Under the pieces are notes generated by a model. That model saw nothing but the letters and a program-made list of their open reading frames with translations, had not been told where the DNA came from and ran no database searches. A stretch of 64,000 nucleotides of DNA, taken from an uncultured Planctomycetota bacterium. Its GTDB lineage: Bacteria > Planctomycetota > PUPC01. Below are positions 3,721 to 38,640 of this stretch, one piece after another (the stretch's first letter is position 1; each line of letters opens with the position of its first letter). Position numbers and translations under genes: made by a program. The stretch is taken from contig CAYLQD010000001.1 in the NCBI GenBank assembly GCA_964385685.1, positions 13,432 through 77,431 of the forward strand, given 5' to 3'.

Positions 3721-3844
3721 AGCGGTTGCTGCTCATGAGGGGGTAGGCCGATGGGAAAGCAGGAGCACGGTGCGCTGGGCCACGAAGGAGCCGCCAACCT
3801 GAAGCCGGGCCAAATACGTGACTTCATCTCGGGTCGGCCGTGCA

Positions 3845-6328
3845 ATGCGACGCCGGAAGAAGTCGAGGCCCGTGCAGGTCTTCGCCCGACGCCTGGTCGA
3901 AGACTACGGCTATCCGAAGTCACATCTGCAAACACGCCCCCAGTTCCGCGTCCGGAAGCACCCGTCGGACGAGAAGAAATCGTATCCCGTCGACATCGCC
4001 GTGTTCAAGTCCGCTGACAGGAGCGAGCAGCAGTTGTCTATGGTGGTCGAGTGCAAGAAAAAGACTCGAAAAGACGGAGTTGCCCAGCTCAAGCTGTACC
4101 TGGACATGTCCGCCGCCGACGTTGGCGTCTGGTTCAATGGCGACGAGCACGAGTACCTGCATAAGATTCACCACAAGGACGGGTCGCGCACCTACGACCG
4201 GTTGCCGAACATTCCACGACACGGACAGCGCATCGAGGACATCGGTCTCTTCCAGCGCAAGGACCTGAAGAAGCCGTCGAACCTCAAGGCCGTCTTCCGC
4301 GATCTGCGCAACCACCTTGCAGGCATGACCACCGGAATCACGCGCGACGAAGCGCTGGCACAGGAAATCATCAACATCCTGTTTTGCAAGATTCTCGACG
4401 AGCAGGAGACGGAACCGGAGGACACAGTCAACTTTCGTGCCGGTGTCGGGGAGAAACCCGATGCGGTCCGCAGGCGCATCCTCAAGCTGTTCGAGCGCGT
4501 GAAGACCGCCACGTTCGAGGATGTCTTCGACGCCACTGACACGATTGGCCTTGACGCCGAAAGTCTGCGGTACGTGGTCGGTGAGCTGCAGAACTACTGG
4601 ATCACGGGGGCCGACAGGGATGCCATTGGCGACGCGTTCGAGGTATTCATCGGCCCCGCCCTTCGAGGGTCGGAAGGACAATTTTTCACGCCGAGGAACG
4701 TTGTCAAAATGATGGTGGAGATCCTGGAGCCAAAACCGGGCGAAAAGATCGTCGATCCGGCTTGCGGGTCTGGCGGATTTCTTATTTGTGCTTTGGAGCA
4801 CGTCTGGGCGCACCTCAAAGAGGAAGCTAAACGGAAGAAATGGAACGATCGCCTTCTGTTCAAACGCGAAGTGGAGGTTGCTACGGATTGCTTCAGGGGG
4901 ATTGACAAGGACGCTTTCCTGGCAAAAGTCTGTAAGGCGTACATGGCCTTGGTGGGCGACGGGCGTGGCGGCGTTTTCTGTGCCAACTCCCTCAGCCGGC
5001 CCGAAGAATGGCACCCGGTCATGCGGGATAAGATAGGTTTGGGCCAGTTTGATGTCCTGCTGACCAATCCTCCTTTTGGGAAGAAGATCATCGTCAAGGG
5101 TGCGCCCGTTCTTTCGCAGTTCGACCTCGGCTACAAGTGGAAGCGGGACAAAGAAACGAAGGAACTGGAAAAAACCACAACCCTTCACGACGACCAGCCG
5201 CCGCAGATTCTGTTTCTTGAACGCTGCCTGCAATTGCTCAAACCCGGCGGACGGCTCGGCATTGTCCTACCGGAGGCCGTCTTCGGCATGCCAACCTATG
5301 AGTACGTCGTCGCTTGGCTGCGCAGGCGCGCGAAGATACGGGGCATTGTTTCAATGCCGGAACCGCTTTTCAAGACGAGCGGCAAGGGTGGGACCCACGC
5401 CAAGGTCTGTGTTTTGTTCCTGGAGAACGCCGTGCCGGAGGAAGACGAGGACTGGGACATCTTCATGGCCGATGTGAAGTGGTGCGGACATGATTCTAGG
5501 GCTAACCCCACAGTCCGGAAAGACGAAGACGGGAACTTGACGCTCCTGGATGACATCCCTGCTGTGGCGCAAAGATATGTTGAGGTCGTCAAACAGAAAG
5601 GTGTGTGTCCCCGCGACCGTTACGGTTTCCTGCAACGGCTGTCTAAGATGCACAATGGGATTTTCATTCCCAAGTACTATGACCCCCAGATCGAAGGTGA
5701 TTTATGTGCGCTCGCGATAACACATGAGCTTGTGCCGTTGCAGGAACTTGTAGAGAAGCGAGTATTGTCTTGGGACACCGGCATTGAAATCGGCAAGATG
5801 GCCTATGGTACGGGGAACATTCCTTTCATTCGAACGTCGGACATCTCAAACTGGGAACTCAAAGGTGATCCCAAACAGAATGTGAGCGAGGAAATCTATG
5901 AGGCAAACAAGCAAGACGTACAGGCCGAGGACATACTCGTTGTTCGAGACGGGACGTATCTGGTAGGCATCTCCTGCATTTTGACCGAGCACGACACGAA
6001 GATTCTCTATTGCGGCGGCATGTACAAGCTACGCGTGGAACACAAGGCGAGACTGGACCCGTACCTGCTGCTGGCTCTCCTGAACTCGCCAATCGTCCGT
6101 CGTCAGATGCGCTCCAAACAGTTCACCCGCGACATCATCGATACGCTCGGCAAGCGGCTATTCGAGGTCGTGTTGCCCATCCCCAAAGACGCTCAGCTTC
6201 GCCGCCGCATTGCAGAAGAGACCCGGCGTGTGATCGAGACGCGGGTGGAACTCCGGAACCGAGCAAAGCAAATCTCACGAGAGGTGGAAGGATTGCCGGG
6301 TTCGGACGCGGAAACCGAGGAGCAATGA
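3845..6328 (+). CDS. single-chain Type IIG-like restriction-modification protein: N-terminal PD-(D/E)xK (HSDR_N-like) nuclease domain + gamma-class N6-adenine MTase + C-terminal HsdS-like target-recognition domain
   Basis: N-terminus VFARRLVEDYGYP...PVDIAVF...MVVECKKK gives a D...E-x-K nuclease signature. FFTPRNVVKMMVEILEPKPGEKIVDPACGSGGFL is motif X/I and LTNPPFGKK is motif IV of N6A MTases. C-terminal about 230 aa resembles an HsdS TRD. ORF begins with GTG at 3818; ATG at 3845 chosen as start. Confidence 0.65.
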   Translation: MRRRKKSRPVQVFARRLVEDYGYPKSHLQTRPQFRVRKHPSDEKKSYPVDIAVFKSADRSEQQLSMVVECKKKTRKDGVAQLKLYLDMSAADVGVWFNGDEHEYLHKIHHKDGSRTYDRLPNIPRHGQRIEDIGLFQRKDLKKPSNLKAVFRDLRNHLAGMTTGITRDEALAQEIINILFCKILDEQETEPEDTVNFRAGVGEKPDAVRRRILKLFERVKTATFEDVFDATDTIGLDAESLRYVVGELQNYWITGADRDAIGDAFEVFIGPALRGSEGQFFTPRNVVKMMVEILEPKPGEKIVDPACGSGGFLICALEHVWAHLKEEAKRKKWNDRLLFKREVEVATDCFRGIDKDAFLAKVCKAYMALVGDGRGGVFCANSLSRPEEWHPVMRDKIGLGQFDVLLTNPPFGKKIIVKGAPVLSQFDLGYKWKRDKETKELEKTTTLHDDQPPQILFLERCLQLLKPGGRLGIVLPEAVFGMPTYEYVVAWLRRRAKIRGIVSMPEPLFKTSGKGGTHAKVCVLFLENAVPEEDEDWDIFMADVKWCGHDSRANPTVRKDEDGNLTLLDDIPAVAQRYVEVVKQKGVCPRDRYGFLQRLSKMHNGIFIPKYYDPQIEGDLCALAITHELVPLQELVEKRVLSWDTGIEIGKMAYGTGNIPFIRTSDISNWELKGDPKQNVSEEIYEANKQDVQAEDILVVRDGTYLVGISCILTEHDTKILYCGGMYKLRVEHKARLDPYLLLALLNSPIVRRQMRSKQFTRDIIDTLGKRLFEVVLPIPKDAQLRRRIAEETRRVIETRVELRNRAKQISREVEGLPGSDAETEEQ

Positions 6329-7902
6329 AGACGTCGCCGAGCGAAACGGAAGTGTTGACCCTCAAGGAGGCGGCGGCCTATGTCCGGGTGAGCCAGAAGA
6401 CCCTGCGGGAACGGGCCAACGCCAAGCAAGTTCCGGGCCAGAAGGTCGGCCGTGAGTGGCGGTTCCTGAAGAAAGCTCTCGACGAATGGCTGTCGGGGGC
6501 GCAAGTCGTTGGCGACGGGGCGGGCGCTGTATCGGAGTCGGTGGGGCAGTTGTACTTGCCCGCCGCCGAGAAGGTGCGCGAGCCGACTAGGGCAGGGTTC
6601 GGCGACACGGCCTTCACCAAGAATCGAGAGGAACCTGTTCACCGCTGGGTGCCATGGGTCGCTGGCTTTTCCTCATCCTTCGTCCGGGAAATACTCGACC
6701 GCGAGGGGATCGACAGTCCCCGCCAGATCGTGCTGGATCCGTTCGCCGGTGTCGGCACGACCCTTGTGGAGAGCGTCAGAGGCGGTGCCAACGCCATCGG
6801 CTTTGAGATTAACCCGTATGCCGCGTTGGCGTGCAAGGTCAAGCTCGAAGCGGTCCGGAAGCCTCCCCGTGAAGTCCGGGACGCCGCGAAGCAACTCGAA
6901 TCCGCCTTGCGAAGATCACTCCGTAACGGTTCACGCCCGACGACCAGCAAGCCGCCGACAGGGTTCCGCACTCGCGACCCGTTCTTCAGCCCGAACGTGG
7001 AACGCCAAGTCCTGCTAGTCAAAGATTTCATCGCCCAGGAGAAACATGCGTGGCTGCGGCGCGTGCTCAACGTTGCCTTTGGTTCGATAATGGTGGGCGT
7101 GTCAAATTACTCCTACGAACCGAGCCTCGGGCGACGTGTTTCCGCTGGGAAGAAGCCGATCCTTGACGCGGACGTCGGTGGCATTCTGCGGGATCAGTTG
7201 CTGCGCATGGCCCAGGATATCGAAATCTTGCAGGCCGACAGGGGCAGCTGGCGCAGCGCCGCCAAGGGGAATGTGTTCAACGAATCCTACATGACGGGAG
7301 CCGGCGGACGCCTCGATCCTGAAACGGTCGACGTTCTAATCACTTCTCCGCCGTATCTGAACAACTACCACTACGTCCGGAACACACGCCCGCAGATTTA
7401 CTGGCTCGATTTTGCGAAGGAAGCCGCTGATTTACGGGACCTCGAAACCACAAGCTTCGGCAAGTTCTGGCAGACGGTCCGCAGTGAGCCGGAGATTGCG
7501 CTGGAGTTCAGTTTTCCCGAACTGGAAGTAAGGCTCTCTGGACTACGGTCCCTTCATCCTGAGAAGGGCGCATACGGCGGGGCGGGCTGGGCGAACTATG
7601 CCGCCACCTATTTCAATGACTGCGCCCGGTTCTGCTCGGTCACCGCGCAAGTGATGAGACCCGGTGGCCTGGTTGTTGTCGTGATCGGCAACAATATCCT
7701 CCAAGGCGTAGAATTCAAGACGGACGAGTTCTTTGCTCATATTGCCGAACAGAGCGGGTTCGAGACCATCGGCCTGCATAGGGTCCGTAAGAAGCGCACC
7801 GGATCGAGTATCGTGAACTCATCCGTGCGGGTGGGGGCAACAAAGAAACGAACTGAGCTGTACGAAACTGCCGTTGAGTTGCGCATGGGAACGGCAACCT
7901 AG
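6325..7902 (+). CDS. DNA amino-methyltransferase (N4-C or N6-A) with N-terminal excisionase/MerR-type HTH
   Basis: Start ATG 6325 overlaps the upstream stop (ATGA at 6325-6328). N-terminal LTLKEAAAYVRVSQKTLRERAN HTH. IVLDPFAGVGTTLVESV SAM-binding motif and LITSPPYLNNYHY catalytic motif. The long in-frame upstream extension from 6010 overlaps the previous gene and is rejected. Confidence 0.6.
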   Translation: MKTSPSETEVLTLKEAAAYVRVSQKTLRERANAKQVPGQKVGREWRFLKKALDEWLSGAQVVGDGAGAVSESVGQLYLPAAEKVREPTRAGFGDTAFTKNREEPVHRWVPWVAGFSSSFVREILDREGIDSPRQIVLDPFAGVGTTLVESVRGGANAIGFEINPYAALACKVKLEAVRKPPREVRDAAKQLESALRRSLRNGSRPTTSKPPTGFRTRDPFFSPNVERQVLLVKDFIAQEKHAWLRRVLNVAFGSIMVGVSNYSYEPSLGRRVSAGKKPILDADVGGILRDQLLRMAQDIEILQADRGSWRSAAKGNVFNESYMTGAGGRLDPETVDVLITSPPYLNNYHYVRNTRPQIYWLDFAKEAADLRDLETTSFGKFWQTVRSEPEIALEFSFPELEVRLSGLRSLHPEKGAYGGAGWANYAATYFNDCARFCSVTAQVMRPGGLVVVVIGNNILQGVEFKTDEFFAHIAEQSGFETIGLHRVRKKRTGSSIVNSSVRVGATKKRTELYETAVELRMGTAT

Positions 7903-8531
7903 CTGCCCCAAGCCGATGCGATCTCACGAAGTATGTCTTCCGTCTTTTCCTCTGCCGTTCGTGTGGCCGCCCACGGCCGCCCGGGATGAAGGATGTCCCA
8001 ACGAGAGCGCTTGCCCGTGCTCCGATACTTCCCTTGTGGATTATTGCCGAAGCCGGTCACAACGGTATTCCAGACCGGGCCCAAACGCTCTATCAGGAAC
8101 CGCTCGGCGAGCGGAATCCAGACCGGTTCAAGAACAAGGTAACGACAACGAAAATCGGAGGTGATCAGGTTTTCAGCATGATCGATACTCTTGGCGTGTT
8201 GCCCCAAACGCTGGCGCAAGGGGCGCTCATCCTCGCGCGCCGAGGATAGCCCCTTCCGTCTGCCAGAAGGAACGGCCTTACCGACATATATTGGCCTGTC
8301 CGACCGACTGATCTTGGCATACCACCCGAGATCTCCCGCGTAGTAGACAGCGTATACTCCAGCGCCCGTGAACTGACGTTTCGGTGGCAGGAGGCCTAAC
8401 GGTTGCGCCATTAGCGCGCCCTCCACGTTCTGGGCGAGATTCTCGTAATCCAGCGGGTCATGCGGTTCGGGCTGCTCGGCTTGGACTCGGGCCACTGACA
8501 CTCCTCCGGGGAACGGTCGCCCTTTCGGCAA
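7899..8531 (-). CDS. GIY-YIG restriction endonuclease, Eco29kI-like
   Basis: 210 aa. GVYAVYY ... PIYVGKA pair (GIY / YIG) followed by Arg/His (RQRLGQH), Glu and Asn positions consistent with the GIY-YIG active site. Size matches the Eco29kI family (about 214 aa). TTG start at 8531. Stop codon overlaps the convergent MTase stop. Confidence 0.5.
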   Translation of the reverse strand: MPKGRPFPGGVSVARVQAEQPEPHDPLDYENLAQNVEGALMAQPLGLLPPKRQFTGAGVYAVYYAGDLGWYAKISRSDRPIYVGKAVPSGRRKGLSSAREDERPLRQRLGQHAKSIDHAENLITSDFRCRYLVLEPVWIPLAERFLIERLGPVWNTVVTGFGNNPQGKYRSTGKRSRWDILHPGRPWAATRTAEEKTEDILREIASAWGS

Positions 8532-25992: not shown

Positions 25993-28900
25993 CTATCGGG
26001 CGCCGGTTCCGGCGCGCCCGGGCCTGATGTAGTGATCCTCGAGTTCCGCGATGAGCTGCCTGAAGCGTTCCCTGAAGGTCGCCTGAGCCAGGCCCGAGCC
26101 CAGGAGCGTCGCCATGCGCCGGTCGGGCGGCTGGATACGGGTCAGGACCGCGAGGTAGCACTCGTCGGTGCGGTTGCCGGGCACGAAGGGCCCGCCGACC
26201 TCGGCCAGCCGCAGCGACAGGAGTTCGTTCATGGTGCGGTAGCGGAACATCATCTGCGGATAGTAGCGAATCTGTCGCGCGATCTGCTGGAGGCCCGGGA
26301 TGCTCACCGGGCCCGTGTCTTGCACCCCCAGCGGCTCGACGTGGAACGTGTCTACCTTGAAGTCCGCGGCGGCGGCCTGCATGGCGGCCAGAGATGGCGG
26401 CGAGGCGAGCTTCGCCCGGACCTGCTCCGCCAGGGCCTTCGCCATGTCCAAGCCGCGGATTCGGGCGACGTCTTCGCGCACCCGTTCCTCGACGTCCTCG
26501 AACGGAGGCGCGCCGGCCGCGAGGACCTTGGTGACTCGCACGATCATCGGCCCGTCCAGCGTGCGCAGGACCGGGCTCGTGTCGCCCTCCTTGGCGGCCC
26601 CGAGGAATGCGTCGAGGCCCGGCACGCCGCGGAGCGGCGGTGCCGCATCGGGGCCGGGCTCGTGCTTCACGGAGTGGGTCCGCAGCTTCTTGAGATCCTT
26701 GGCGATCTCGTCGAGCGGGCGCTTCGCGTCTTTCGCGACGACGGCCGCCGCCTCCTCGAAGAGATCGTTCGCCTCCGTCCTGCTTCGGTGTGTCTTGAGT
26801 TGCCCGACGACGTCATTGCGGACAACCTGGAGGGACAGGTAGGCCCCGGGGTTCTTCCGGTCGGGGAATCGGTGCAGAAGCTGCTCGTAAGCCGCGGCGA
26901 CAGCGTCGTCGTCGGGCGAGATATCCGCCTTGATCTTCGCGCTGTCCGGGCGGAGGCACTCAAGCTCGAAGCGGCGGGGCCGGGCGTAGTCGGCCTTGTG
27001 CGCGTTATAGTGGGCCTTCGCGTCTTCGCCGCTGACGGTTTGCATTGGCGAGAAGAGCGCCGCATCGACGCGGATGTAGTCGACCTTGACCACGCGATTC
27101 TTCCTGGCCTCGCGCACGCGGGCGAGCTGCAAAACGGACGGGCTCTTGACGACCGCGGTCGGCCGGCCGGGCTCCGTCGCCAGGACGGCGTCGCGGAGCG
27201 CCTCGGTGACGAAGGGCTGCTCGGCGGCTCGTTCCTTGTCGAAGAACGGGGTCGTCTGCACGCTCGGCGCGAAGGGCAGGTCTTCGGCCAACTCGGGGCG
27301 CGCGAGCGCGTCGCCGAGGGACGTGCCCGGATGCGCGGCGAGGTAGGCGCGGACCTTATTCAAGGCGGCCTCGGCGCGGGCGGCCAGGAGCGCTTCGCGC
27401 GCGGCCCGGCGCACCCCCACGAGGGCGTCCTTCAGTTCGGGGATCCGGCTGTCCTTCTTCTCGAAGACGCGGAAGAGCGCCCATCCGTTTCCGGTGAGTA
27501 CGGGCTCGCTCAGAACCCCGTCCGGGGCTTCGGTGATGGCTTTCACGAGCGCGGGCGCGAATCCGACCCGCGGGACCACGACGTCGTCCGCGGCCAGAGG
27601 TGGGGTCGTGCCGGAAACAAGGGGCAGTTTCGCGTTCGCAGCCGCCACCTGAGCGAGCGGGATGGGCTTGGCCGTCGCGGCCATGCGGGCCGCCGCGATC
27701 ATCTGTTGGGCGCCGCCCGAGGTTGCGTGTCTTCTCGCCAGTTCGGCACGGATCTCCCGCTGCAGCGCGCGGTCGAGTTCCCGGTCCTTGTACGTCGTCG
27801 TGGCGCGCTCCTGGAAGTAGGCCTCGACGTCCTTCCCGGGGATGTTCTTCTTGAAGAGGCGGGCGACCTCGTCGAACGACACGAACAAAAACTCCGCGCG
27901 GGCCCGCGCGGGCTCGCGGAACTCCTCGCGATGCGCCTCGTAATACTCGGCCGCTTCGCCCTCGTTGACCTTGACGGACAGCGGATCGTACGCGTTGGGG
28001 TCCGTCGGGTCGACGGAAACGAACTCGATCTTGCGCTCGTCGCGGGTCTCCTCTTCGGCCAGATGCAGGATGGCGGCGGCCGATTTGTCGGTGAGCACGG
28101 CGCTGAGGTCGCCTTTCTTGAGGGCGAAGGCGGCCTTGACGATCCCTGGATTGCCGCCGAGGAGGAAGTCATCGTCGATATGGAAGAAACCGGAGGTCGC
28201 GGCATCGAGCGAGGCCGTCCTCGGGATACGGAGCGGGTTGGCCTTGAAGTGCTCGCGGAACACCTCGCTGAGTCGGAGCGCGAGATACTCGTTGTACCGG
28301 GCCTCGAAGTCGCCGCGCTTCCATTCCTCGATGAGTTCGGCCTCGGCCTGCTTGACCTGGTCCTCGGTCGGTTCGGGCTTCGGCTTGTCGTCGTCGGTGT
28401 CCTCGGCCTTGGTTTCTTTCTCGAGGGCGGCGTCGCGGATGGCCCGTGCCCGCTCGTCGATGGCGTTATTGGCTGGCGGGACGACGGCCGTGAATTCCTT
28501 CGGCGTGAGGCGGACGAACTCGATTGTCTGGGTTCGGGTTTCCGGGTCGGGATTGGCGACGGCGGCGGTGTAGTACGTCTCGCCTTCTCGAGCCATGGGG
28601 ATAATGGTGCCGGGCGCGGCGTCTTTGACGCGCCGCACGAGCGCCGGCGGGATGGCCGCGGCCCCGTCGCCGGCCGTCTTAACGGCCGTGGCCTTGAGGG
28701 CGAGTTTGTTTTCGGCGGCGACGGCGGCGAGAAACGCGCGGGCGATATCGACACGGATCTGTTGGGCCGCGTCGCGGGCCCTGTCGACGGCTCGCGCGTG
28801 GCGGAAGTCGCGAGTCACCCTTGCTTCCAGCCGCGGGCTGAGGGTCGAGTATACGATACTGTGGGGACCGCGGTACGCCATCACGCGGAAGGCGAACATC

Positions 28901-30609
28901 GTGTCGCCGCTTTCGAACTGCGTGCTGAACGGGTGGACGGCCACCTCCTTGTCGGCGGCAACACGGCGCGGGGCGGGCCGCATGCCCTCGCTGAACGCGG
29001 TGGCGAGGAACTTGGGTGCCGCCGCGAGTTCCCCGAGGGCGCCTCTCGCGTCGTTCTGGTTGGCGGTGAAGAGACGCGACATCCGATACGTCAGGCCGGC
29101 CTCTCGGGCGACCGAGGCGAGCGGGAGTATTCCGCCGTCGTTGTCCTGTGCCTTCCGGGCGACCTCGCTGAGCGCGCGGGCGGCCGCCTGGCGCGCGCGG
29201 ACGGCCTTCCTCATCTCCAGGATTTCCTCCCGGACCTCCGCGAGCAGCTTGGGCGTCTCGCCGTCGTCGGACAGGAACGCGCGGGTCTTGTGCTGTTCGT
29301 AGTAGCGCGCGATCTCGCTCTCGGTGACACGAACGCGCCGCCGCAGCTCGGCCAGGTCGGCGGCGGCGTACTCGATCTGGACCTGCGCCTCCTGCCTGTA
29401 AGCGAACGAGGTCACGTCGGGCCTGCGAGCGATGTTCTTGTGTCGCTCGTAGAAAGCCTGCACGTCGTCGGGGTTCAGCGGTTCCTGCCGGTCGACGAAC
29501 CCCTCGACAGGCACGGGAACCAGCAGACCCGTCACGGTCTGGCCCAGCCACGCGGCCCACTGCTCGCGGGCATCCTGAGAGGTCGGCGACCCGCCTCTGG
29601 CGGGCCCGCATACGGTGCGGACGAACTTTCGGACGGTGAGGAACTCGTCGATCGTCCGGCGGACCTGCCCCGGGGCCATCTGGGCCTTCTCACGAATGAC
29701 GGCCGCGTGGTCGGGGTAGGTGCGGGTCGTTGTGAACTTGCCGTTGAGCCAGCCCTCGTCGTGTGCGAAGAGGGTGCCGTCGGAGGCGATGCCGGCCGAT
29801 GTGGCGACGACGCGCAGGACGACACGTTTGTCGCCGACCGTCCAGACACGGCCGGGCACGCCCGGGCGGGCCCGGAACAATTCCGCGCTGATTCCCTCGG
29901 GAGCGTTCGCGCCAAGCCGCCGGGACAGCTCCGCGCGGAACGTATCCGGGGAGAGGCGCTTGAGCCGCCCCCACTGGAGCCCCGATTCCTTCGCAACGTT
30001 CGCGAAGGCCGTCTGCCATTGTCTCTTCTGCTGGGGCATCTTGGCGAGCGCGCCGACGGCTTGGTTGATCTGCGCGAGAGCCGCCTCGCCCGCCAGCTTC
30101 TTCTTGACGGTGTCGCGGACGCGGTCCTTGACCGCTTCGAACGTCTCAGACTTGTCCGGCCACGTGGCGTCGTAGTGGGCCTTCAGTTCCGCGTCGGTCG
30201 GCTCGATGTTCTTGGTGAGCTCCGCCGGATCGGCGGCGACGTACTCGATGTTGATATGGATCGGGGGATACCGGAGGAGCTTCCTGGTTACGGCATCGGG
30301 GCCGACCCGAACACCGTGCCTGCGACCCGCGCGATGCAGAACGAACAACCGCTCTATGGGGTCCTCGACGTCACCGACCAGCGCGGGGGCCTCCGGATCC
30401 GAGGTCATGAGCCAGACGAGGAGGGTCTGCCACCGGCGTGAGAAGTCCGCTCTCTCGGTCCACGTCACCGGTTCGCCGTAGAAGGTGCTGACGATCTGGT
30501 CGCCCGGGCCCCGCTGGCACCCGCCCCTTGGGACCGCAAAGACGGCCATCAGGAACGCGGCCAGCAACACCAGCAGCCACTTCTGATACTTATCGAACGT
30601 CCTGAACAT
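25993..30609 (-). CDS. giant membrane-anchored periplasmic chaperone with repeated SurA-N/PpiD-like modules and degenerate parvulin-like domains
   Basis: 1538 aa from ATG 30609 ([25 protein letters not shown] signal anchor). At least 7 recurrences of the SurA_N-type motif ([DE]xx[AK]xYYExH...). Two parvulin-like segments lack the catalytic His ([33 protein letters not shown]). Confidence 0.55.
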
Positions 30610-30632
30610 CTCGGCCTCTCCAACAGAGCGCG

Positions 30633-31652
30633 CTAGAATTGCTTGAGGAAGCGGGCGTCGTTCTCGTAGAACAACCGGATATCGTCGATCCCGAGCTTGA
30701 GCATCGCGATCCGGTCGATACCCATCCCGAACGCGAAACCGGTGTATCGCTCGGGGTCGTAGCCCACGTGGCGGAACACCTCGGGGTCGACCATGCCCGC
30801 GCCGAGCACCTCGATCCACCCCGACTGGCCGCAGACCTTGCAGCCGCCGCCGGAGCAGAACGGGCAGGACACGTCGACCTCGGCGCTGGGCTCGGTGAAC
30901 GGGAAGAATGAAGGGCGGAACCGCGTCTTCGTCTGCTCGCCGAAGACCTCCTGCATGGCCATGCTGAGCACGGCCTTCAGGTCGGCGAACGTGACGTGCT
31001 CGTCGACATAGAGCCCTTCGAGCTGGTGGAACACGGGGAAGTGGCTGGCGTCGACGGTGTCGGGCCGGAATACGCGTCCGGGCACGACGATCCGGAGCGG
31101 CGGCTGCCGCGATTCCATCACGTGGATCTGCACGGGCGACGTGTGGCTCCGCAGCAGGTGCTTGTGCCCGCCATCGCATTCGAGGTAGAGCGTGTCGAAA
31201 CTGTCCCTGGACGGATGGTCGGGCGGGATGTTGAGTGCGTCGAAGTTGTGGTATTCGTCGTCGATCTCGGGGCCGTAGGCCGTCTCGAACCCGAGCCGGG
31301 CGAAGATCGCGACGAGTTCATCGTTCGTCTGCGTGATCGGATGGCGGGTGCCGAGCCGCCGGCGGGTGCCGGGCACGGTCACGTCGATTGCCGGGCCGGC
31401 GGAGCGAGGCGCGGCCACGCCGTCCTGTCGCCCGGCCAGGGCCTGTTCGATGGCGCGCTTGACCTCGTTGGCCAACTTGCCGGCTGCGGGTTTCTCGTCG
31501 GGCGGAAGCTGGGGCAGGCGGGTCATCAGCGCCTTGAGCGCGCCCTTGCGCCCGAGGTACTGGACGCGCAGGGCTTCGAGCGCGGCGGCGTCGGGCGCGG
31601 CGGCGATGGCCGCGACGGCTTCGTCACGCAGGGCTTCCAGGTCGGTCAGCAT
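30633..31652 (-). CDS. pheS: phenylalanine--tRNA ligase alpha subunit
   Basis: Class II aaRS motifs (HPSRDSFDTLYL, FRPSFFPFTEPS). 339 aa. Confidence 0.9.
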   Translation of the reverse strand: MLTDLEALRDEAVAAIAAAPDAAALEALRVQYLGRKGALKALMTRLPQLPPDEKPAAGKLANEVKRAIEQALAGRQDGVAAPRSAGPAIDVTVPGTRRRLGTRHPITQTNDELVAIFARLGFETAYGPEIDDEYHNFDALNIPPDHPSRDSFDTLYLECDGGHKHLLRSHTSPVQIHVMESRQPPLRIVVPGRVFRPDTVDASHFPVFHQLEGLYVDEHVTFADLKAVLSMAMQEVFGEQTKTRFRPSFFPFTEPSAEVDVSCPFCSGGGCKVCGQSGWIEVLGAGMVDPEVFRHVGYDPERYTGFAFGMGIDRIAMLKLGIDDIRLFYENDARFLKQF

Positions 31653-32835: not shown

Positions 32836-32891
32836 CGTTCACCTCCTTGGGCCTGGGGCCCGGTAAAACCAAACGTGTTGCGGCTCCGGCC

Positions 32892-34817
32892 TCACCGCTT
32901 CTCGCTGATGTCCTCGAGCATGGTGCCGATCAAGTCGTCCAGGACGATGGAGCCGGCGTCGCCCTCTTTATAGGTTCGCACGGAGACCTCGCCGGACTCG
33001 ACCTCGCGGTCTCCGATGATCAACATGTACGGGACCTTCTGCGTCGTGTGCTCGCGGATCTTGGCGCCCATCTTCTCGCTGCGCGAGTCGAGCGTGACGC
33101 GGATGCCGGCCGCGGCGAGTTTGTCGCGCACCGCTTCGCCGCGAGCGTGGTGTCGCTCGGTGATGGGGATGACGGCCGCCTGGACGGGCGCGAGCCACAT
33201 GGGGAACGCTCCGCCGTAATGTTCGACGAGGCAGCCGAAGAACCGCTCGATCGACCCCATCAGGGCGCGGTGGATCATGATCGGCTGGTGGGCGGCTCCG
33301 TCCGATCCGGTGTAGGTCATGTCGAACCGGTCAGGGATGTTGAAGTCGACTTGGATGGTGGAGCACTGCCAGACGCGCTTGAGCGAGTCGCGGATGTTGA
33401 GGTCGATCTTGGGCCCGTAGAAGGCGCCTTCGCCCTCCTGCACGATGTAGTCGAGCCGGCTGTTGGCGAGCGCGCGTTCGAGCGCCTCGGTCGACTTGTC
33501 CCAGTTCTCCTGCTCGCCGACGAACTTCGCGGGCTGCGTGCTCAGGGCCACGTCGAAGTCGTCGAACCCGAACGTGCGGAGGATGGTGAGCGTGAAGTCG
33601 AGGGTCTTCTGGATCTCATCGTCGAGCTGATCGAGGCGGCAGAAGATGTGAGCGTCGTCCTGGGTGAAGCCGCGCACGCGCAGGAGGCCGTGGAGCACGC
33701 CGGGCTTCTCATAGCGATAGACGGTGCCCAGCTCGGCCCACCGCATCGGGAACTCGCGGTAGCTGCGGCGTCGGCTCTTGTAGATCTGAATATGAAACGG
33801 GCAGTTCATCGGCTTGATCTGGTACTGCTGCTCGTCGATCTGCATCGGCGCGTACATGTTGTCGCGGTAGAAGCCGGTGTGCCCGCTGCGGTCCCAGAGC
33901 TGGAGCCGGCCGATGTGGGGCGTGTAGATGATTTCGTAGCCGTGCTCGAAGTGGGCGTCGCGCCAGAAGCGCTCGATGATGGTGCGGATGCGGCCGCCTT
34001 TGGGGTGCCAGAGGACGAGGCCCGGGCCGACGAGGTCGTCGGTCGAGTACAGCTCGAGTTCCTTGGCGAGCCGCCGGTGGTCGCGCTTCTTCGCTTCTTC
34101 GACGAGGCGGAGGTGTTCGTCGAGCTGCTCCTGTGTCGGGAACGCGGTGCCGTAGATGCGCTGGAGCATGGCGTTGTGCTCGTCGCCACGCCAATAGGCG
34201 CCAGCGACGGACAGGAGCTTGACGGCGCCGATGCTGCCCGTGGCCGGGACGTGCGGCCCGCGGCAGACGTCGATGAAGTCGCCGCTCGTGTAGGTGCTGA
34301 CGGTCTCCGCCCCGGCCTGCTGAATCTCGTCGACGAGTTCCGCCTTGTATGTGTCGCCCTGCTCCCGGGCCTCGCGGAGCACGTCGCCGGCCGGGCGCTC
34401 GGCCCGGACGAAGGGGGCGTTTTCGGCGACGACCTTCGCCATCTCGGCTTCGATCTTCGGGAGGTCGTCTTCGGTGAGCCGGTGCTCGAGGTCGATATCG
34501 TAGTAGAAGCCGTCGCTGATCGCGGGGCCGATGGCGAACTTCGTGTCGGGCCAGAGGCGCCGGATAGCGGCGGCCATCACGTGGGACGCGCTGTGGCGGA
34601 GGATCTCGAGGCCGTCTTCGCTGTCGGGAAGGATGGGCTCGACGGCGCAGTCTGCGTCGATAGGGCGGGCCAGGTCGGCCGGGTCGCCGTCTATGTTCAC
34701 CCCGACGGGTTGCGGGGTGTCTTGTGCGCCCGATTCGTTCTCGGCGAGTATCTCGGCGGCGGTTACGCCTTCCGGATACTGCTTCACCTGGCCGTCGGGC
34801 AGCCGGATGTTGACCAA
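32892..34817 (-). CDS. thrS: threonine--tRNA ligase
   Basis: TGS, second-additional, class II catalytic and anticodon-binding domains. TTG start at 34817 with AAGGAGG SD. Confidence 0.9.
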   Translation of the reverse strand: MVNIRLPDGQVKQYPEGVTAAEILAENESGAQDTPQPVGVNIDGDPADLARPIDADCAVEPILPDSEDGLEILRHSASHVMAAAIRRLWPDTKFAIGPAISDGFYYDIDLEHRLTEDDLPKIEAEMAKVVAENAPFVRAERPAGDVLREAREQGDTYKAELVDEIQQAGAETVSTYTSGDFIDVCRGPHVPATGSIGAVKLLSVAGAYWRGDEHNAMLQRIYGTAFPTQEQLDEHLRLVEEAKKRDHRRLAKELELYSTDDLVGPGLVLWHPKGGRIRTIIERFWRDAHFEHGYEIIYTPHIGRLQLWDRSGHTGFYRDNMYAPMQIDEQQYQIKPMNCPFHIQIYKSRRRSYREFPMRWAELGTVYRYEKPGVLHGLLRVRGFTQDDAHIFCRLDQLDDEIQKTLDFTLTILRTFGFDDFDVALSTQPAKFVGEQENWDKSTEALERALANSRLDYIVQEGEGAFYGPKIDLNIRDSLKRVWQCSTIQVDFNIPDRFDMTYTGSDGAAHQPIMIHRALMGSIERFFGCLVEHYGGAFPMWLAPVQAAVIPITERHHARGEAVRDKLAAAGIRVTLDSRSEKMGAKIREHTTQKVPYMLIIGDREVESGEVSVRTYKEGDAGSIVLDDLIGTMLEDISEKR

Positions 34818-34923
34818 CGTGCCTCCTTGTTAATGCAGCTCGTGGCGCGTCTCGCTTCCGCCCGGGTTACGCCGGACAGAGCGACTCGAATGGCCCGCTA
34901 TGAGCGAGCAAAGCGAGTCGAAT

Positions 34924-35000
34924 GGTGGGCGATACTGGATTCGAACCAGTGACCTCTTGCTTGTCGAGCAAGCGCTCTAAACCAACTGAGCTAATCGCCC
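34924..35000 (-). tRNA. tRNA-Val (anticodon GAC), CCA encoded
   Basis: GGGCGATTAGCTCAGTTGGTTTAGAGCGCTTGCTCGACAAGCAAGAGGTCACTGGTTCGAATCCAGTATCGCCCACCA folds into a perfect cloverleaf (7-bp acceptor, GCTC/GAGC D stem, CTTGC/GCAAG anticodon stem, TTCGAAT T loop). Position 33 is C. Confidence 0.8.
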
Positions 35001-35024
35001 ATTTGGCGAGACCCGAGAAAGCCG

Positions 35025-35052
35025 ATTATCCAATTCCGTTCGGTCTTGTCAA
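35025..35052 (-). promoter_or_regulatory. sigma70-like promoter for tRNA-Val (and probably thrS)
   Basis: Minus-strand TTGACA (35052-35047), 16-nt spacer, GATAAT (35030-35025). tRNA 5' end about 25 nt downstream. Confidence 0.5.
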
Positions 35053-35298
35053 GAGCATGCCGCGCATGTGAGAGCCATACACAATGTGGTGTCGCGGTAG
35101 ATGAACGCGCGGCGTTTCGACCCAGCCCCATGGGCAAGGATCGGTGGCCGCACACGTGGCCGCCGGTGAGGCCCGAAGGCGCTATGTCGAATGCTCCGGG
35201 TGCATGTTGGGCCGGTTGCCTCACTAGGCGCGACTAATCGGGGCCCCTGGCCTTGGCGGGCCTTAGCGTCCGGCCGCAGGCGCCCCCGAGCTGAGTGC

Positions 35299-35880
35299 TC
35301 AGCGCGCCTCGGTCGTGCGCGAGAAGAATGGCTCCAGCTGTTTCGAGAAAAGGTCCAACAGTCTCGCCAGGACGGGCAGGAGCACACGATAGGCCGTCAA
35401 CTGCACGAGCGGTTGCGAGTCATCTGTCTCAAGCCAAGTTGTTATATGCGCAACCAGGTCTCGTATGGGGCCCACGAGGGCTTCGGCGCCTTGAAGTCTG
35501 CCGTGTGCTTGGAGGGCCCGTCCGAGGTTGTCGGACAACAAGTCCTTCGCCAGTCCTCGGTGCCACGCGTCCCACTCTTGCCGCCAGCTAACGCGACGGT
35601 TGAGTAGTCTCGCTGTGTCCTCGGCGGGAAGTCCTTGCGCGACGGTAGATAGGTCCCCCGAGCTGTGGTCTATCTCGGCCGCGGTCCTCCACGCGCACTT
35701 GTAGCTCTCGAAAAGCTCGTCGTTGACCTCACGAGGAAGGCTTTTCCGTTTGCCCCAGAAACACACGAGATCCTCTTCCTCCTCAAAGAGCCGACACCCG
35801 TGCGAAAGACCCCTTCGGTTTCGTTGGAGCCTCCCGGTCTTGGCGCGCCCTGTGTGCCGGAGCGTGAGATGACGTCCCAC
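35299..35880 (-). CDS. hypothetical protein (low-GC cassette gene 4)
   Basis: Foreign codon usage. GTG 35880 with GGGGAG SD, 5 nt after the upstream TGA. The same frame is open back to 36042, so a frameshifted fusion with the upstream gene cannot be excluded. Confidence 0.35.
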   Translation of the reverse strand: MGRHLTLRHTGRAKTGRLQRNRRGLSHGCRLFEEEEDLVCFWGKRKSLPREVNDELFESYKCAWRTAAEIDHSSGDLSTVAQGLPAEDTARLLNRRVSWRQEWDAWHRGLAKDLLSDNLGRALQAHGRLQGAEALVGPIRDLVAHITTWLETDDSQPLVQLTAYRVLLPVLARLLDLFSKQLEPFFSRTTEAR

Positions 35881-35885
35881 GTGCG

Positions 35886-36287
35886 TCAGTTCTCCCCGCG
35901 CTGCTCCAGAACGGCGCAAAGATGGGTGAGGTGCGTGTGGACAAGGTCGTCCATGGCCTCGATTGTCCGAAACCAGATATCGCGAACACGATCTAGCCCC
36001 GGGCTCCCGCTGGCCACGGGCAGCGCCTCCTCGGGGAACCACTTGGCCACTCTGCGCGCCGCGCGTCCGATGACTTGCTTCAGCACGCGGACTTCAATGT
36101 CTGGGTCCGAAGTTGATGCGGCAGGCGGAATATCGAGTCGGCTGAGGCCGCTCGCAAACGCGCGCCAAGCGCAAGCCACGTTCGCATGGGCGCGAGGGCC
36201 AAAATCCGCCTCTTCCGCCCATTGCCGAACCATCAGATTCAAGAAACCACGAACTCGTACCAAGCCGGCAAGAAAGCTTTCCTCCAT
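35886..36287 (-). CDS. hypothetical protein (low-GC cassette gene 3)
   Basis: 133 aa. ATG 36287 preceded by a GGGGGGGA SD. About 34% A/T at third positions. No recognisable motif. Confidence 0.4.
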   Translation of the reverse strand: MEESFLAGLVRVRGFLNLMVRQWAEEADFGPRAHANVACAWRAFASGLSRLDIPPAASTSDPDIEVRVLKQVIGRAARRVAKWFPEEALPVASGSPGLDRVRDIWFRTIEAMDDLVHTHLTHLCAVLEQRGEN

Positions 36288-36335
36288 CGGTCCCCCCCGA
36301 TGCGATTGTTGTTCATGTGGCCGTGAACTATCTGG

Positions 36336-36668
36336 TCACAGCGCAGGAACGGCCCATCCGGACTGCACCAATTCTCTCAGTATACCGACCCGGTTCTCGA
36401 TGTTCTTCACATGCTGCCGTTGCTCATCGGTAGTTGCCAACTTCGAGGCGCGTTCATAGGAGCGGTCAAACAACTCTACACATTCGGTGGACATGCTTTC
36501 TGTCCACTGCTCAGGGAAGTACGCATGCGTGATGCACCCTACGCTCAGGACCATGCGCGAAGATTCGCAGATCTCCGACGTATCTGCCCCGAGCAGGGCG
36601 TTCCGGAGCTTGCCGGTCCATTCCTCATACATGTCCATCACGTCCTTGGCTTCCAGCACGTCTTCCAT
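36336..36668 (-). CDS. hypothetical protein (low-GC cassette gene 2)
   Basis: 110 aa, AAGGGGGAAGG SD abutting the ATG. Acidic, no recognisable motif. Confidence 0.4.
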   Translation of the reverse strand: MEDVLEAKDVMDMYEEWTGKLRNALLGADTSEICESSRMVLSVGCITHAYFPEQWTESMSTECVELFDRSYERASKLATTDEQRQHVKNIENRVGILRELVQSGWAVPAL

Positions 36669-36855
36669 CTTCCTTCCCCCTTATTCGTTGGCAGTCTTGT
36701 GCCTTCCACTGGCCACGGCGAAAGCGTCCTTCAGCCACTTGCGGGCGCTGAACGCGATAACGTTGCGCTCCACCCAACTGAGCGTTGCGCGTGGGAAAAA
36801 GACGCATGCACCCATAACGCAAATGCTGTGCCAGGCGTGCGTGTATTCGGGCGCA

Positions 36856-37122
36856 TTAATCGTTTCTCATTGCAGAGACAGAACTTAGGCGGCAGATGGT
36901 TGTTTCGAGCTTGGCGACGGAGGACTGAATCGTTGCATTTGCGGAACACCCAAGGAGCGCATCGTCGCTCCTGCGAAACGCAAGAACGTTGGATTTCTTC
37001 ATTGGCTCGACGAGACTCTCGGAATCGGCTTCCACACATACTATATCGGCATCGGCCGAGCAGTTCTTGAGTGCCTTCGAGCTGGCTTCGAACGTGGCGA
37101 ATTCAAGAGCGGAAACGGTCAC
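36856..37122 (-). CDS. hypothetical protein (low-GC cassette gene 1), translationally coupled to rplQ
   Basis: 88 aa. GTG start 37122-37120 overlaps the rplQ TGA 37121-37119 (GTGA). About 41% A/T at third positions. Confidence 0.4.
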
Positions 37123-37628
37123 TGGGCCTCCTGTTCTGCCTCCGCTTCGAGCCCGAGCTCTTCCTGCACTTCGGCCTCAGGTTCGGCCGGGGGCTCCGGC
37201 TCCTCGTCAAGGGCGACCTCGGGCCGCACGGGCGTGCCGCCCTCCTCGGCGAGTCCGACGAGTTCGAAGATGACTTGCTGGGCGGCATCCCCGACACGGC
37301 GCCGGCCGAGCCGCAGGATGCGGGTGTAGCCGCCGTTGCGGTCGGCGTAGCGCGGGGCGATCTCGGCGAAGAGCTTGCGGACGGCCTGCTTGTTTGGGAG
37401 CAGCTCGAGCGCCCGCCGCCGCGCGGCGAGCGTGCCCTTCTTGCCGAGGGTGACGAGGCGCTCGGCGAGCCGCCGGGCCTCCTTCGCCTTCTCGGGGGTC
37501 GTCTGGATTCGCTCGGCGTGCTCTTCGGTCGGCGTGGCGAGGAAGAGGGCTTCGACGAGGTTCCTCAGCAGGGCCCGTCGGGCTCCCGACCGGCGGCCGA
37601 GCTTTCTGTTGGCATTTCTATGACGCAT
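37119..37628 (-). CDS. rplQ: 50S ribosomal protein L17
   Basis: [25 protein letters not shown]17 N-terminus. Acidic Ala/Glu-rich C-terminal tail. Confidence 0.9.
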
Positions 37629-37659: not shown

Positions 37660-38640
37660 TCAGTCGAGCATCATGCCCAACTGAAGATCGAGTTCGGACA
37701 GTTTTTCGACGATCTCAGTCAACGAGGTCTGGCCGAAGTTGCGCAAGCTCAGGAGATCGGCCTCGGTCTTGGTGACCAGGTCGCGCAGCGTGGCAAGCTT
37801 CTGCGACGCAAGGCAGTTGGCCGAGCGGACCGACAGGTCCAGTTCGTCGACCGATTTCGAGAGCAGTTTTTCCAGCTCGTTCTGGTGTTCGAGTTCTTTC
37901 TGCGCGGCGAGCTGAGCGGCCGCGTCTTCGATCGGCGGCCCCAGCTCGAAGTACTGCACGAACGGGTCGAGGTGCTTCCGGTAGATCCGCGCGGCCTCGA
38001 CGACGGCCATCTCGGGGTCGACGGTGCCGTCGGTCCAGACCTCGAGGGTCAGCCGGTCGTAGTCCGTTGCCTGCCCGACGCGGCAGTTCTCGATCGTTGG
38101 CTTGACCTTGACGACGGGGGAGAACACGCCGTCGAGCGCGATGTGCCCGATGTCCTCAGAGACAAACTCCTCGGCGACCTTATAGCCGCGGCCGGGCTGG
38201 GCCTCGAGGGTGGCGACGACCTTGCCGCCCTCGCTGACGGTCGCCAGGTGCAGGTCGGGGTTGGCGATCTCGACGTCGGCATCGTGCTGGATGTCGCCGG
38301 CGGTCACCTCGCCCTTGCGGCGGACGTCGAGCTGCAGCTCCTTGGGCCCGTCGGCATGCAGCCGGACGAGCACCTTCTTCAGGTTCAGGCAGATGTCCGT
38401 GACGTCTTCCACGACGCCGGGGAGCGTCTGGAACTGGTGCTGCACGCCGTCGAACCGGACGGACGTGACGGCGGCGCCGCGCAGCGACGACAGGAGCACG
38501 CGCCGGAGGCCGTTCCCGACCGTGATGCCGTATCCCCGTTCGAACGGCTCGGCCGTGAACTTGCCGTACGTTTCCGTGAGCGAGTCCTTGTCGCACACAA
38601 CTCGAACCGGAAGCTCAAAACCCATCCACCTCTTTCGCAT
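37660..38640 (-). CDS. rpoA: DNA-directed RNA polymerase subunit alpha
   Basis: NTD and CTD motifs ([17 protein letters not shown], ...[11 protein letters not shown]). Confidence 0.9.

Follow-up and report, generated by a model that had tools for sequence, protein, structure and literature searches.

Background

Small sets of foreign genes are found in bacterial genomes in several described settings. Lineage-specific islets of orphan open reading frames (ORFans) have a lower GC content, both overall and at third codon positions (GC3), are absent from relatives at a conserved syntenic site, and carry small genes without homologues or clear function. Phage morons and other read-through cargo are small foreign gene sets located downstream of a strongly expressed operon, and composed of compact genes with their own ribosome-binding sites. 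Integron arrays, and the clusters of attC sites lacking integron-integrases (CALINs), consist of promoterless, co-directional, small and mostly orphan open reading frames (ORFs), served by an upstream promoter. Mobile insertion cassettes, about 2 kb long, hold passenger genes only, and are flanked by a short direct repeat; tRNA-associated integrative islands adjoin a tRNA gene. Likenesses to all of these are found in a block of about 2 kb, located between rplQ, the gene for ribosomal protein L17, and a tRNA-Val gene, in a stretch of 64,000 nucleotides from an uncultured Planctomycetota bacterium (contig CAYLQD010000001.1; the whole stretch is called here the window).

An earlier note, made from the letters of the window alone, had described the block as a foreign cassette of four ORFs, hitch-hiking on the rplQ transcript, and had proposed that it could be a toxin-antitoxin or anti-phage module. 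The analysis reported here favours, with a probability of about 70%, a different description of its content: the block is a foreign insert of about 2.05 kb, and would hold three small helical orphan genes (ORF2 to ORF4) and a chimeric ORF1, have arrived in a single illegitimate event, be transcribed by passive read-through, and be tolerated as cargo.

Results

A block absent from all relatives examined

The genes of the locus are all on the minus strand, and are given here in the direction of transcription.

37660-38640, minus strand: rpoA, upstream of rplQ
37119-37628, minus strand: rplQ (ribosomal protein L17), with which the ribosomal-protein/rpoA block ends; from the ORF list, with PF01196 on the called gene
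37121-37119, minus strand: stop codon TGA of rplQ
35057-37102, minus strand: inserted DNA, about 2,046 bp, about 60% GC; homology to relatives breaks off here
35052-35025, minus strand: tRNA-Val promoter, sigma-70-like, TTGACA-16-GATAAT
34923-35000, minus strand: tRNA-Val, anticodon GAC (ARAGORN; Rfam tRNA, 71.6 bits)
32892-34817, minus strand: thrS, conserved downstream neighbour, then infC-rpmI-rplT-pheS

Relatives were found by a protein search with L17, followed by look-ups of the contigs encoding exactly the proteins found; the closest named L17 homologues come from metagenome-assembled genomes of Planctomycetota. The comparison set is formed by seven Planctomycetota lineages, with an L17 77-90% identical to that of the window (proteins P0010, P0011, P0012, P0016, P0017, P0020 and P0027); the loci compared are L167-L181 and L184-L186. 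In all seven, the gene order is rplQ, tRNA-Val(GAC), thrS, and no gene lies between rplQ and the tRNA. Where contigs reach far enough, infC-rpmI-rplT-pheS and a giant Rotamase_2 protein come next, as in the window. The junctions of the relatives inspected are composed of the rplQ stop, 12-29 nt, a promoter of the form CTTGACA-N16/17-GATA, a leader of 20-150 nt, and tRNA-Val; in the window, the distance from the rplQ stop to tRNA-Val is 2,118 nt. The comparison at the DNA level covered six of the seven lineages, with an identity to the window of 77-82% in the flanking genes: homology ends within the 3' end of rplQ, and picks up again at the tRNA.

Since the junction is empty in all relatives examined, the block is, judging from these alignments, an insertion gained in this lineage only. 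The foreign and lineage-specific nature of the block, as proposed in the earlier note, is thus borne out by every relative examined. The same note had indicated orthologous cassettes, shared among relatives, as the outcome that would overturn its proposal; the opposite was found, with none in the seven lineages, and this supports a lineage-specific gain.

The cassette is present on all four contigs found to carry exactly this L17. An identical L17 is encoded by L184, L185 and L186: in two of these contigs thrS is followed by infC-rpmI-rplT, and the third (L185, 6657-8474) is the exception to the conserved order, featuring two sulfatase genes directly after thrS. This difference is either a strain-level rearrangement or a difference in assembly.

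An abrupt change of composition between two highly conserved regions is also what a chimeric join would produce, and the block could in principle be an artefact of assembly. Look-ups of exact proteins, however, place the window on the 96-kb JGI metagenome contig Ga0118727_1000517 (3300009128), and cassette ORFs were found on other JGI, ENA and Logan contigs, and on a 106-kb NCBI contig. The junction is 99.8-100% identical across the JGI, ENA and Logan assemblies, which derive from different samples and pipelines, and short contigs span rplQ-ORF1-ORF2 as well as ORF2-ORF3-ORF4. Because independent contigs agree to this extent over the region, the block is not regarded as an assembly artefact, an explanation that is scarcely conceivable.

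Composition

The insert has a GC content of about 60%, against 65.7% for the whole window. The difference is more evident at third codon positions: GC3 is 0.85 in rplQ, 0.89 in rpoA and 0.91 in thrS, and falls to 0.60 in ORF1, 0.71 in ORF2, 0.67 in ORF3 and 0.70 in ORF4 (for ORF2, GC at the three positions is 0.57/0.41/0.71). Third-position A/T is thus 29-40%, close to the 34-41% reported in the earlier note, which had placed the drop immediately after rplQ. At the DNA level, the insert matched nothing in collections of phages (INPHARED included) and plasmids, nor in the rest of the window or in any fetched locus.

A second stretch of low GC3 (0.58-0.71) is present in the window, at 3818-8531, and is a restriction-modification island. 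It is composed of an 836-aa protein with HSDR_N and N6_Mtase domains (3818-6328, plus strand), a protein with HTH_17 and N6_N4_Mtase domains (6010-7902, plus strand) and an Eco29kI-family endonuclease (7899-8531, minus strand), indicating that in other parts of this genome, too, low GC3 is a mark of genes acquired horizontally.

Junctions of the insert

An 8-bp sequence is repeated at the two ends of the insert.

37110-37103, minus strand: left copy of the direct repeat GCTCTTGA, made up of what remains of the ancestral spacer and of bases 1-4 of the -35 box
35056-35049, minus strand: right copy of the direct repeat GCTCTTGA, overlapping the -35 hexamer

After the rplQ stop, the left junction reads CCGTTTCC-GCTCTTGA-ATTCGCC; the right one reads GCGGCAT-GCTCTTGA-CAAGACC, and includes TTGACA, the -35 box of the tRNA promoter. 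No other 8-mer is common to both junction windows. Excision of 35057-37102, along with one copy of the repeat, leaves TGA-CCGTTTCCGCTC-TTGACA, and the empty site so reconstructed can be aligned to the junctions of the relatives so that the -35 and -10 boxes coincide. The inserted DNA measures about 2,046 bp, to which the 8-bp duplication is added, and it entered inside the -35 hexamer; the tRNA promoter is kept intact by the right copy of the repeat. The block had been described as ending just before the tRNA-Val promoter, and the position of the latter (TTGACA-16-GATAAT at 35052-35025) agrees with this. By our estimate, a shared 8-mer is expected by chance in such junction windows in about 2% of cases: the repeat is good but not conclusive evidence for the junctions, and only suggestive as a target-site duplication.

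A duplication of 8 bp is typical of several insertion sequence families, and the repeat lies exactly at both junctions. The insert might accordingly be a non-autonomous mobile element, such as a mobile insertion cassette or the remnant of a transposon, moved by a transposase acting in trans, and the repeat its target-site duplication. Against this, terminal inverted repeats are absent: when the initial 80 nt were aligned locally to the final 80 nt in reverse complement, the score was 12, where shuffled sequences average 13.1 (P=0.79), and no further repeat stood out at the flanks. No transposase was found among the ORFs of the insert by Pfam or NCBIfam matches. No second copy of the insert exists in the window, in the fetched loci, or in phage and plasmid collections, nor do the protein databases contain a copy of ORF3 or ORF4. 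Transposons and mobile insertion cassettes were rejected for the lack of inverted ends, and a mobile element, in the wider sense given above, is very improbable.

Other routes of acquisition were also considered. Integron cassettes and CALINs were rejected, as no attC-like pairs of R''/R' cores are found at a spacing of 45-160 nt on either strand of 35000-37150, by a scan with a simple consensus rather than the covariance model of IntegronFinder. Nor is intI present among the genes called within 10 kb on either side (ribosomal proteins, rpoA, thrS, infC, rpmI, rplT, pheS and the giant Rotamase_2 protein). For a tRNA-targeted island an integrase is missing; the insert precedes the promoter of the tRNA, and its repeat derives from that promoter instead of the tRNA gene. 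The earlier note had recognized neither an integrase nor a transposase, and had set the block apart from classical islands at tRNA 3' ends: recombinase matches are indeed absent, and the insert is on the 5' side of the tRNA. A remnant of the tRNA-Val 5' end inside the insert was looked for, and the only shared 7-mer, CGATTAG, is at chance level.

Coding potential of the ORFs

The insert and its left junction contain the following features.

36856-37122, minus strand: ORF1, 88 aa, starting with the GTG of the GTGA that holds the rplQ stop; from the ORF list, GC3 0.60
36669-36855, minus strand: gap between ORF1 and ORF2, 187 nt, without coding signal; frame scores near zero or negative across its middle
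36336-36668, minus strand: ORF2, 110 aa; Shine-Dalgarno sequence, structural model, independent gene callers
35886-36287, minus strand: ORF3, 133 aa; Shine-Dalgarno sequence, helical periodicity
35299-35880, minus strand: ORF4, 193-aa version, with the start taken by the earlier note
35299-35766, minus strand: ORF4, 155-aa version, with GTG at 35766; strongest ribosome-binding site, second gene caller
35057-35298, minus strand: 3' tail of the insert, about 240 nt, non-coding; all six frames negative

Four co-directional ORFs, the first with a GTG overlapping the rplQ stop, had already been reported, and their coordinates are confirmed. Their length says little. Dinucleotide-preserving shuffles of the insert contain a longest ORF of 173 aa per strand, on average, and the plus strand carries two antisense shadow ORFs over the cassette, of 264 aa (35665-36459) and 219 aa (36411-37070); thrS, in turn, is overlapped by a shadow ORF of 701 aa (32847-34952, plus strand). 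As shuffled sequences and shadow ORFs reach these lengths, ORF length alone is no evidence of a gene in this GC-rich genome, and other signals were considered.

Frames were scored by amino-acid log-odds, trained on the confident genes of the window versus the five alternative frames of the same genes. The highest score belongs to the frame of ORF4 at about 35390-35810, of ORF3 (weakly) at about 35930-36170, of ORF2 at about 36350-36710 and of ORF1 at about 36950-37070. The signal changes frame at the ORF boundaries, and disappears in both gaps, leaving about 430 nt of the insert without it: in the 3' tail all frames are negative, and between ORF1 and ORF2 they are near zero or negative. The long plus-strand ORFs cross stretches with a negative score in their own frame, as shadow ORFs do.

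Pairing with the anti-Shine-Dalgarno sequence was evaluated on the minus strand, between 35000 and 37200: four of the six strongest sites lie 4-12 nt before the four starts, and similar ribosome-binding sites are used by the host genes thrS, rpoA and rpsD. ORF2 is preceded by AAGGGGG (-11.0 kcal/mol), 7 nt before its ATG, and ORF3 by GGGGGGG, 4 nt before its ATG. Pairing is strongest in this region for GAGGAGG (-12.0 kcal/mol), found not at the ORF4 start at 35880, but before the internal GTG at 35766. Of the strong Shine-Dalgarno sequences formerly attributed to each ORF, those of ORF2 and ORF3 are real, and the best one of ORF4 belongs to this internal start. The shorter, 155-aa form is also the output of the second gene caller and the representative in a database clustered at 50% identity, and ORF4 is more likely to be 155 than 193 aa long. 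The site of ORF1 falls within the GAG-rich tail of rplQ, that is, in host codons of the L17 C-terminal extension, and codons 1-6 of ORF1 are host spacer sequence, not insert. With its GTG, Shine-Dalgarno sequence and first six codons all derived from the host, ORF1 is a chimera created at the junction, and not a gene that arrived intact.

The properties of the encoded proteins were also examined. ORF2 is modelled by AlphaFold2, from the single sequence, as a four-helix bundle with a mean predicted local distance difference test score (pLDDT) of 84.5 and a predicted template modelling score of 0.73 (two of five models above 80); it is also called by independent gene callers. The helical hydrophobic moment, compared with that of shuffled sequences, gives z=4.0 for ORF3, 1.9 for ORF4, 1.6 for ORF2 and 0.6 for ORF1, and about 0.8 for the two long plus-strand shadow ORFs; ORF3 is strongly amphipathic and probably helical. 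None of the four proteins is notably hydrophobic (grand average of hydropathy from -0.37 to +0.08); ORF1 and ORF2 are acidic (ORF2 with an isoelectric point of 4.6), and ORF3 and ORF4 are near neutral. Three single-nucleotide polymorphisms (SNPs) are present among the available contigs: two, seen in another sample, are in the gap between ORF1 and ORF2 (36691, 36687), and one is in ORF3.

These data may be compared with the view that the insert is non-coding or decaying foreign DNA, whose ORFs would be chance frames, or remnants of pseudogenes, yielding no functional protein. The ORF set is unexceptional when compared with the shuffles (P about 0.04 for the longest, about 0.3 for the total), the plus-strand ORFs are as long or longer, ORF4 is poorly modelled and ORF1 is chimeric; to this may be added the 430 nt devoid of coding signal, and the lack of a homologue for any ORF. 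Yet the changes of the frame signal coincide with the ORF boundaries, Shine-Dalgarno sites lie at the first starts of ORF2 and ORF3 (three of the six best sites would fall at such positions by chance, according to our estimate, with P < 1e-4), ORF2 has a confident fold, and the periodicity of ORF3 is far from that of the shadow ORFs. This view is unlikely, although it deserves to be kept in mind. ORF2, the best supported gene, is very probably a real protein, and ORF3 and ORF4 are probably real ones; ORF1 is the weakest candidate, and its coding status is doubtful.

It had also been asked whether ORF3 and ORF4 might be a single gene, interrupted by a frameshift. The boundary between them is not a sequencing error, because independent assemblies that cover it are 100% identical there. 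ORF4, moreover, is provided with a strong ribosome-binding site of its own; the reading as one gene, though conceivable, is not needed.

The two non-coding gaps were analyzed as possible sites of structured RNA, and this was rejected: folding revealed no significant hairpins (z=-0.9 for the gap between ORF1 and ORF2, z=-1.7 for the 3' tail), and no Rfam match was obtained.

Searches for homologues and function

No match better than E of about 0.07 was obtained for the four ORFs in Pfam, NCBIfam, PADLOC and PHROGs. In PADLOC-DB 2.0 no family is reported at E<=1 for any of them, PHROGs gave noise only, and no toxin or antitoxin family is matched in Pfam, NCBIfam or PADLOC. ORF3 finds only its own cluster among 5.8 billion proteins (k-mer/HMMER search). 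ORF4, compared by an exhaustive HMMER search with 1.84 billion representatives, finds only itself, beyond one marginal match (E=8e-4) to a 2,834-aa kinase with TPR-like repeats; the latter was rejected as most likely compositional, due to Ala/Glu/Leu-rich helical repeats. The clusters of ORF1 to ORF3 have one or two members each, as determined by look-up of the exact sequence, which is the sole protein-cluster coverage for ORF1 and ORF2. Searches of PDB sequences with ORF2 to ORF4 were empty, scans of IMG/VR with the same three revealed no relatives, and a fold search in BFVD gave no match at E<=0.001. The four ORFs are not paralogous to one another, nor to any other sequence of the window. 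The failure of the earlier note to recognize a family for any of the four proteins is therefore matched by empty profile searches for all of them, and by the absence of homologues for ORF3 and ORF4, ORF1 and ORF2 having been checked less fully.

ORF4 contains the motifs RDLVAH (residues 102-107 of 155) and RQEWDAWH, of a type expected about once by chance. In HEPN toxins an Rx4-6H motif is located in the last helix of a four-helix fold. A HEPN reading of ORF4, based on its Rx4H motif, was not retained: the count is close to chance, the model is of too low a quality for the fold to be assessed, and no HEPN or DUF86 match in Pfam is found in the ORFs even at E<=1.

The proposal of a working accessory system, either a toxin-antitoxin pair or an anti-phage module, formed by ORF2 to ORF4 and driven constitutively by the ribosomal-protein transcript, has several points in its favour. 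The genes are small, compact, co-directional and provided with strong ribosome-binding sites, the composition of the DNA is foreign, and the block is carried by every contig retrieved from this population. Moreover, ORF2 is modelled as an acidic four-helix bundle, a fold common among antitoxins, immunity proteins and anti-defence proteins. The searches do not sustain it: none of PADLOC, Pfam, NCBIfam and PHROGs is matched and no conserved gene neighbourhood is present, and the only confident model, that of ORF2, is a generic four-helix bundle. We consider such a system quite unlikely. An outside chance, slimmer still, is left to two more unusual possibilities: ORF2 to ORF4 may be a three-protein helical accessory system of a kind not yet seen (defence, anti-defence or toxin-immunity), captured once and placed on the rpoA-rplQ transcript, or the 8-bp duplication may mark an unrecognized route of DNA capture at tRNA promoters.

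Transcription and a proposed history of the insert

On the coding strand, the interval from rplQ to the tRNA promoter is devoid of sites resembling a promoter or a terminator; the sole promoter-like site on the minus strand here is the tRNA-Val promoter itself. In the absence of a promoter or terminator of its own, read-through from rplQ is the only visible route of expression for the cassette. Of the proposed hitch-hiking on the rplQ transcript, the presence of a foreign block after rplQ, without a promoter of its own, is confirmed; the read-through itself is inferred.

The favoured history may be outlined as follows. A foreign piece of about 2.05 kb, with a lower GC content than the host, entered the short spacer that separates the rplQ stop from the -35 box of tRNA-Val. 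Since a recombinase, inverted ends and a second copy are all lacking, acquisition would most likely have been a single illegitimate event, by fill-in of a staggered break or by microhomology-mediated joining at GCTCTTGA. The joining of the insert to the host spacer would have created the chimeric ORF1, starting on the rplQ stop. Transcripts reaching the end of rplQ would continue through the cassette into the tRNA region, so that the ORFs ride the rpoA-rplQ message, with ORF1 translated by stop-start coupling and ORF2 to ORF4 from their own ribosome-binding sites. Most likely, the genes do not form a defined toxin-antitoxin or defence system, and represent instead cargo of a phage or of another mobile element that is tolerated where it landed.

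Some observations weigh against this history. Read-through transcription rests solely on the absence of signals. ORF lengths, as seen above, do not depart from those of the shuffles. The composition signal of ORF3 is weak (0.02-0.18), and the AlphaFold2 model of ORF4, all helices, has a low confidence (pLDDT 46.8). No homologues are available to gauge purifying selection, and the sole coding SNP is non-synonymous (D99G, in ORF3). The 8-bp repeat, at about 2% by chance, could be a coincidence or a microhomology, instead of a target-site duplication.

Other features of the neighbourhood

The leader of tRNA-Val differs among relatives. In the closest ones it contains tandem units of 36 nt, each opening with a mimic of the tRNA 5' end (GGGCGATTAGGGTCGCC...AAGGAAGAGAAAC): two copies are present in L167 (4696-4832) and L168 (2692-2828), and three in L169 (1884-2056). 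In L170 and L176 the leader features, instead, a long hairpin based on GGCGAT(T/C)AGGG...GAT(T/C)GCC. The spacer between rplQ and tRNA-Val is a variable spot in this clade.

On the other side of the junction, the 3' end of rplQ (37119-37270) encodes the C-terminal extension of L17, acidic, of low complexity and rich in Glu, Ala and Pro, which varies in length and sequence among relatives (proteins of 143-201 aa).

Just 3' of tRNA-Val, at 34877-34925, a 17-nt direct repeat is found (CCATTCGACTCGCTTTG / CCATTCGAGTCGCTCTG on the minus strand), whose first copy includes the CCA end of the tRNA. CGACTCG and CGAGTCG, an inverted pair, are found in the same region, which may act as a hairpin for processing or termination, or else be an old att-like scar.

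The giant protein with a Rotamase_2 domain, directly downstream of pheS, is located at 25993-31179 on the minus strand; the ORF is 1,728 aa long, and the gene is called as 1,538 aa. Its arrangement with pheS is kept in relatives L173 and L175.

Discussion

All relatives sampled share the rplQ/tRNA-Val/thrS junction in conserved form, so that the block described here offers a clean and datable case of foreign DNA retained beside an essential operon. The insert landed a few bases from that operon, and inside the promoter of a tRNA. If it is true that the orphan genes ride the ribosomal-protein transcript, their products would be made at high level, and the locus would be a convenient test case for the functionality of acquired orphan genes. 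A practical caution also follows from the analysis: in GC-rich DNA, ORF length alone does not indicate a gene.

When the insert is compared with the systems described at the outset, the differences are as informative as the likenesses. tRNA-associated islands carry an integrase and a duplicated 3' segment of the tRNA, both missing here, where the insert lies on the promoter (5') side. Mobile insertion cassettes differ from it by their terminal inverted repeats, and because it is present in a single copy. From integron arrays and CALINs it is set apart by the lack of attC-like core pairs, of significant hairpins in the gaps, and of intI within the annotated neighbourhood of 20 kb. Morons are typically part of a prophage and equipped with a promoter and a terminator of their own: the insert, in contrast, features neither signals of its own nor a surrounding prophage, and has no PHROG or IMG/VR match.

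The closest resemblance is to ORFan islets. The insert departs from them in being without a mobility gene and in its apparent dependence on the transcript of an essential operon, as well as in its site: it is located at the end of a gene block that is among the most conserved of bacteria, and interrupts the -35 region of a tRNA promoter. Lineage-specific islets of orphan genes are a familiar kind of feature, and the insert is one more instance, notable mainly for its position.

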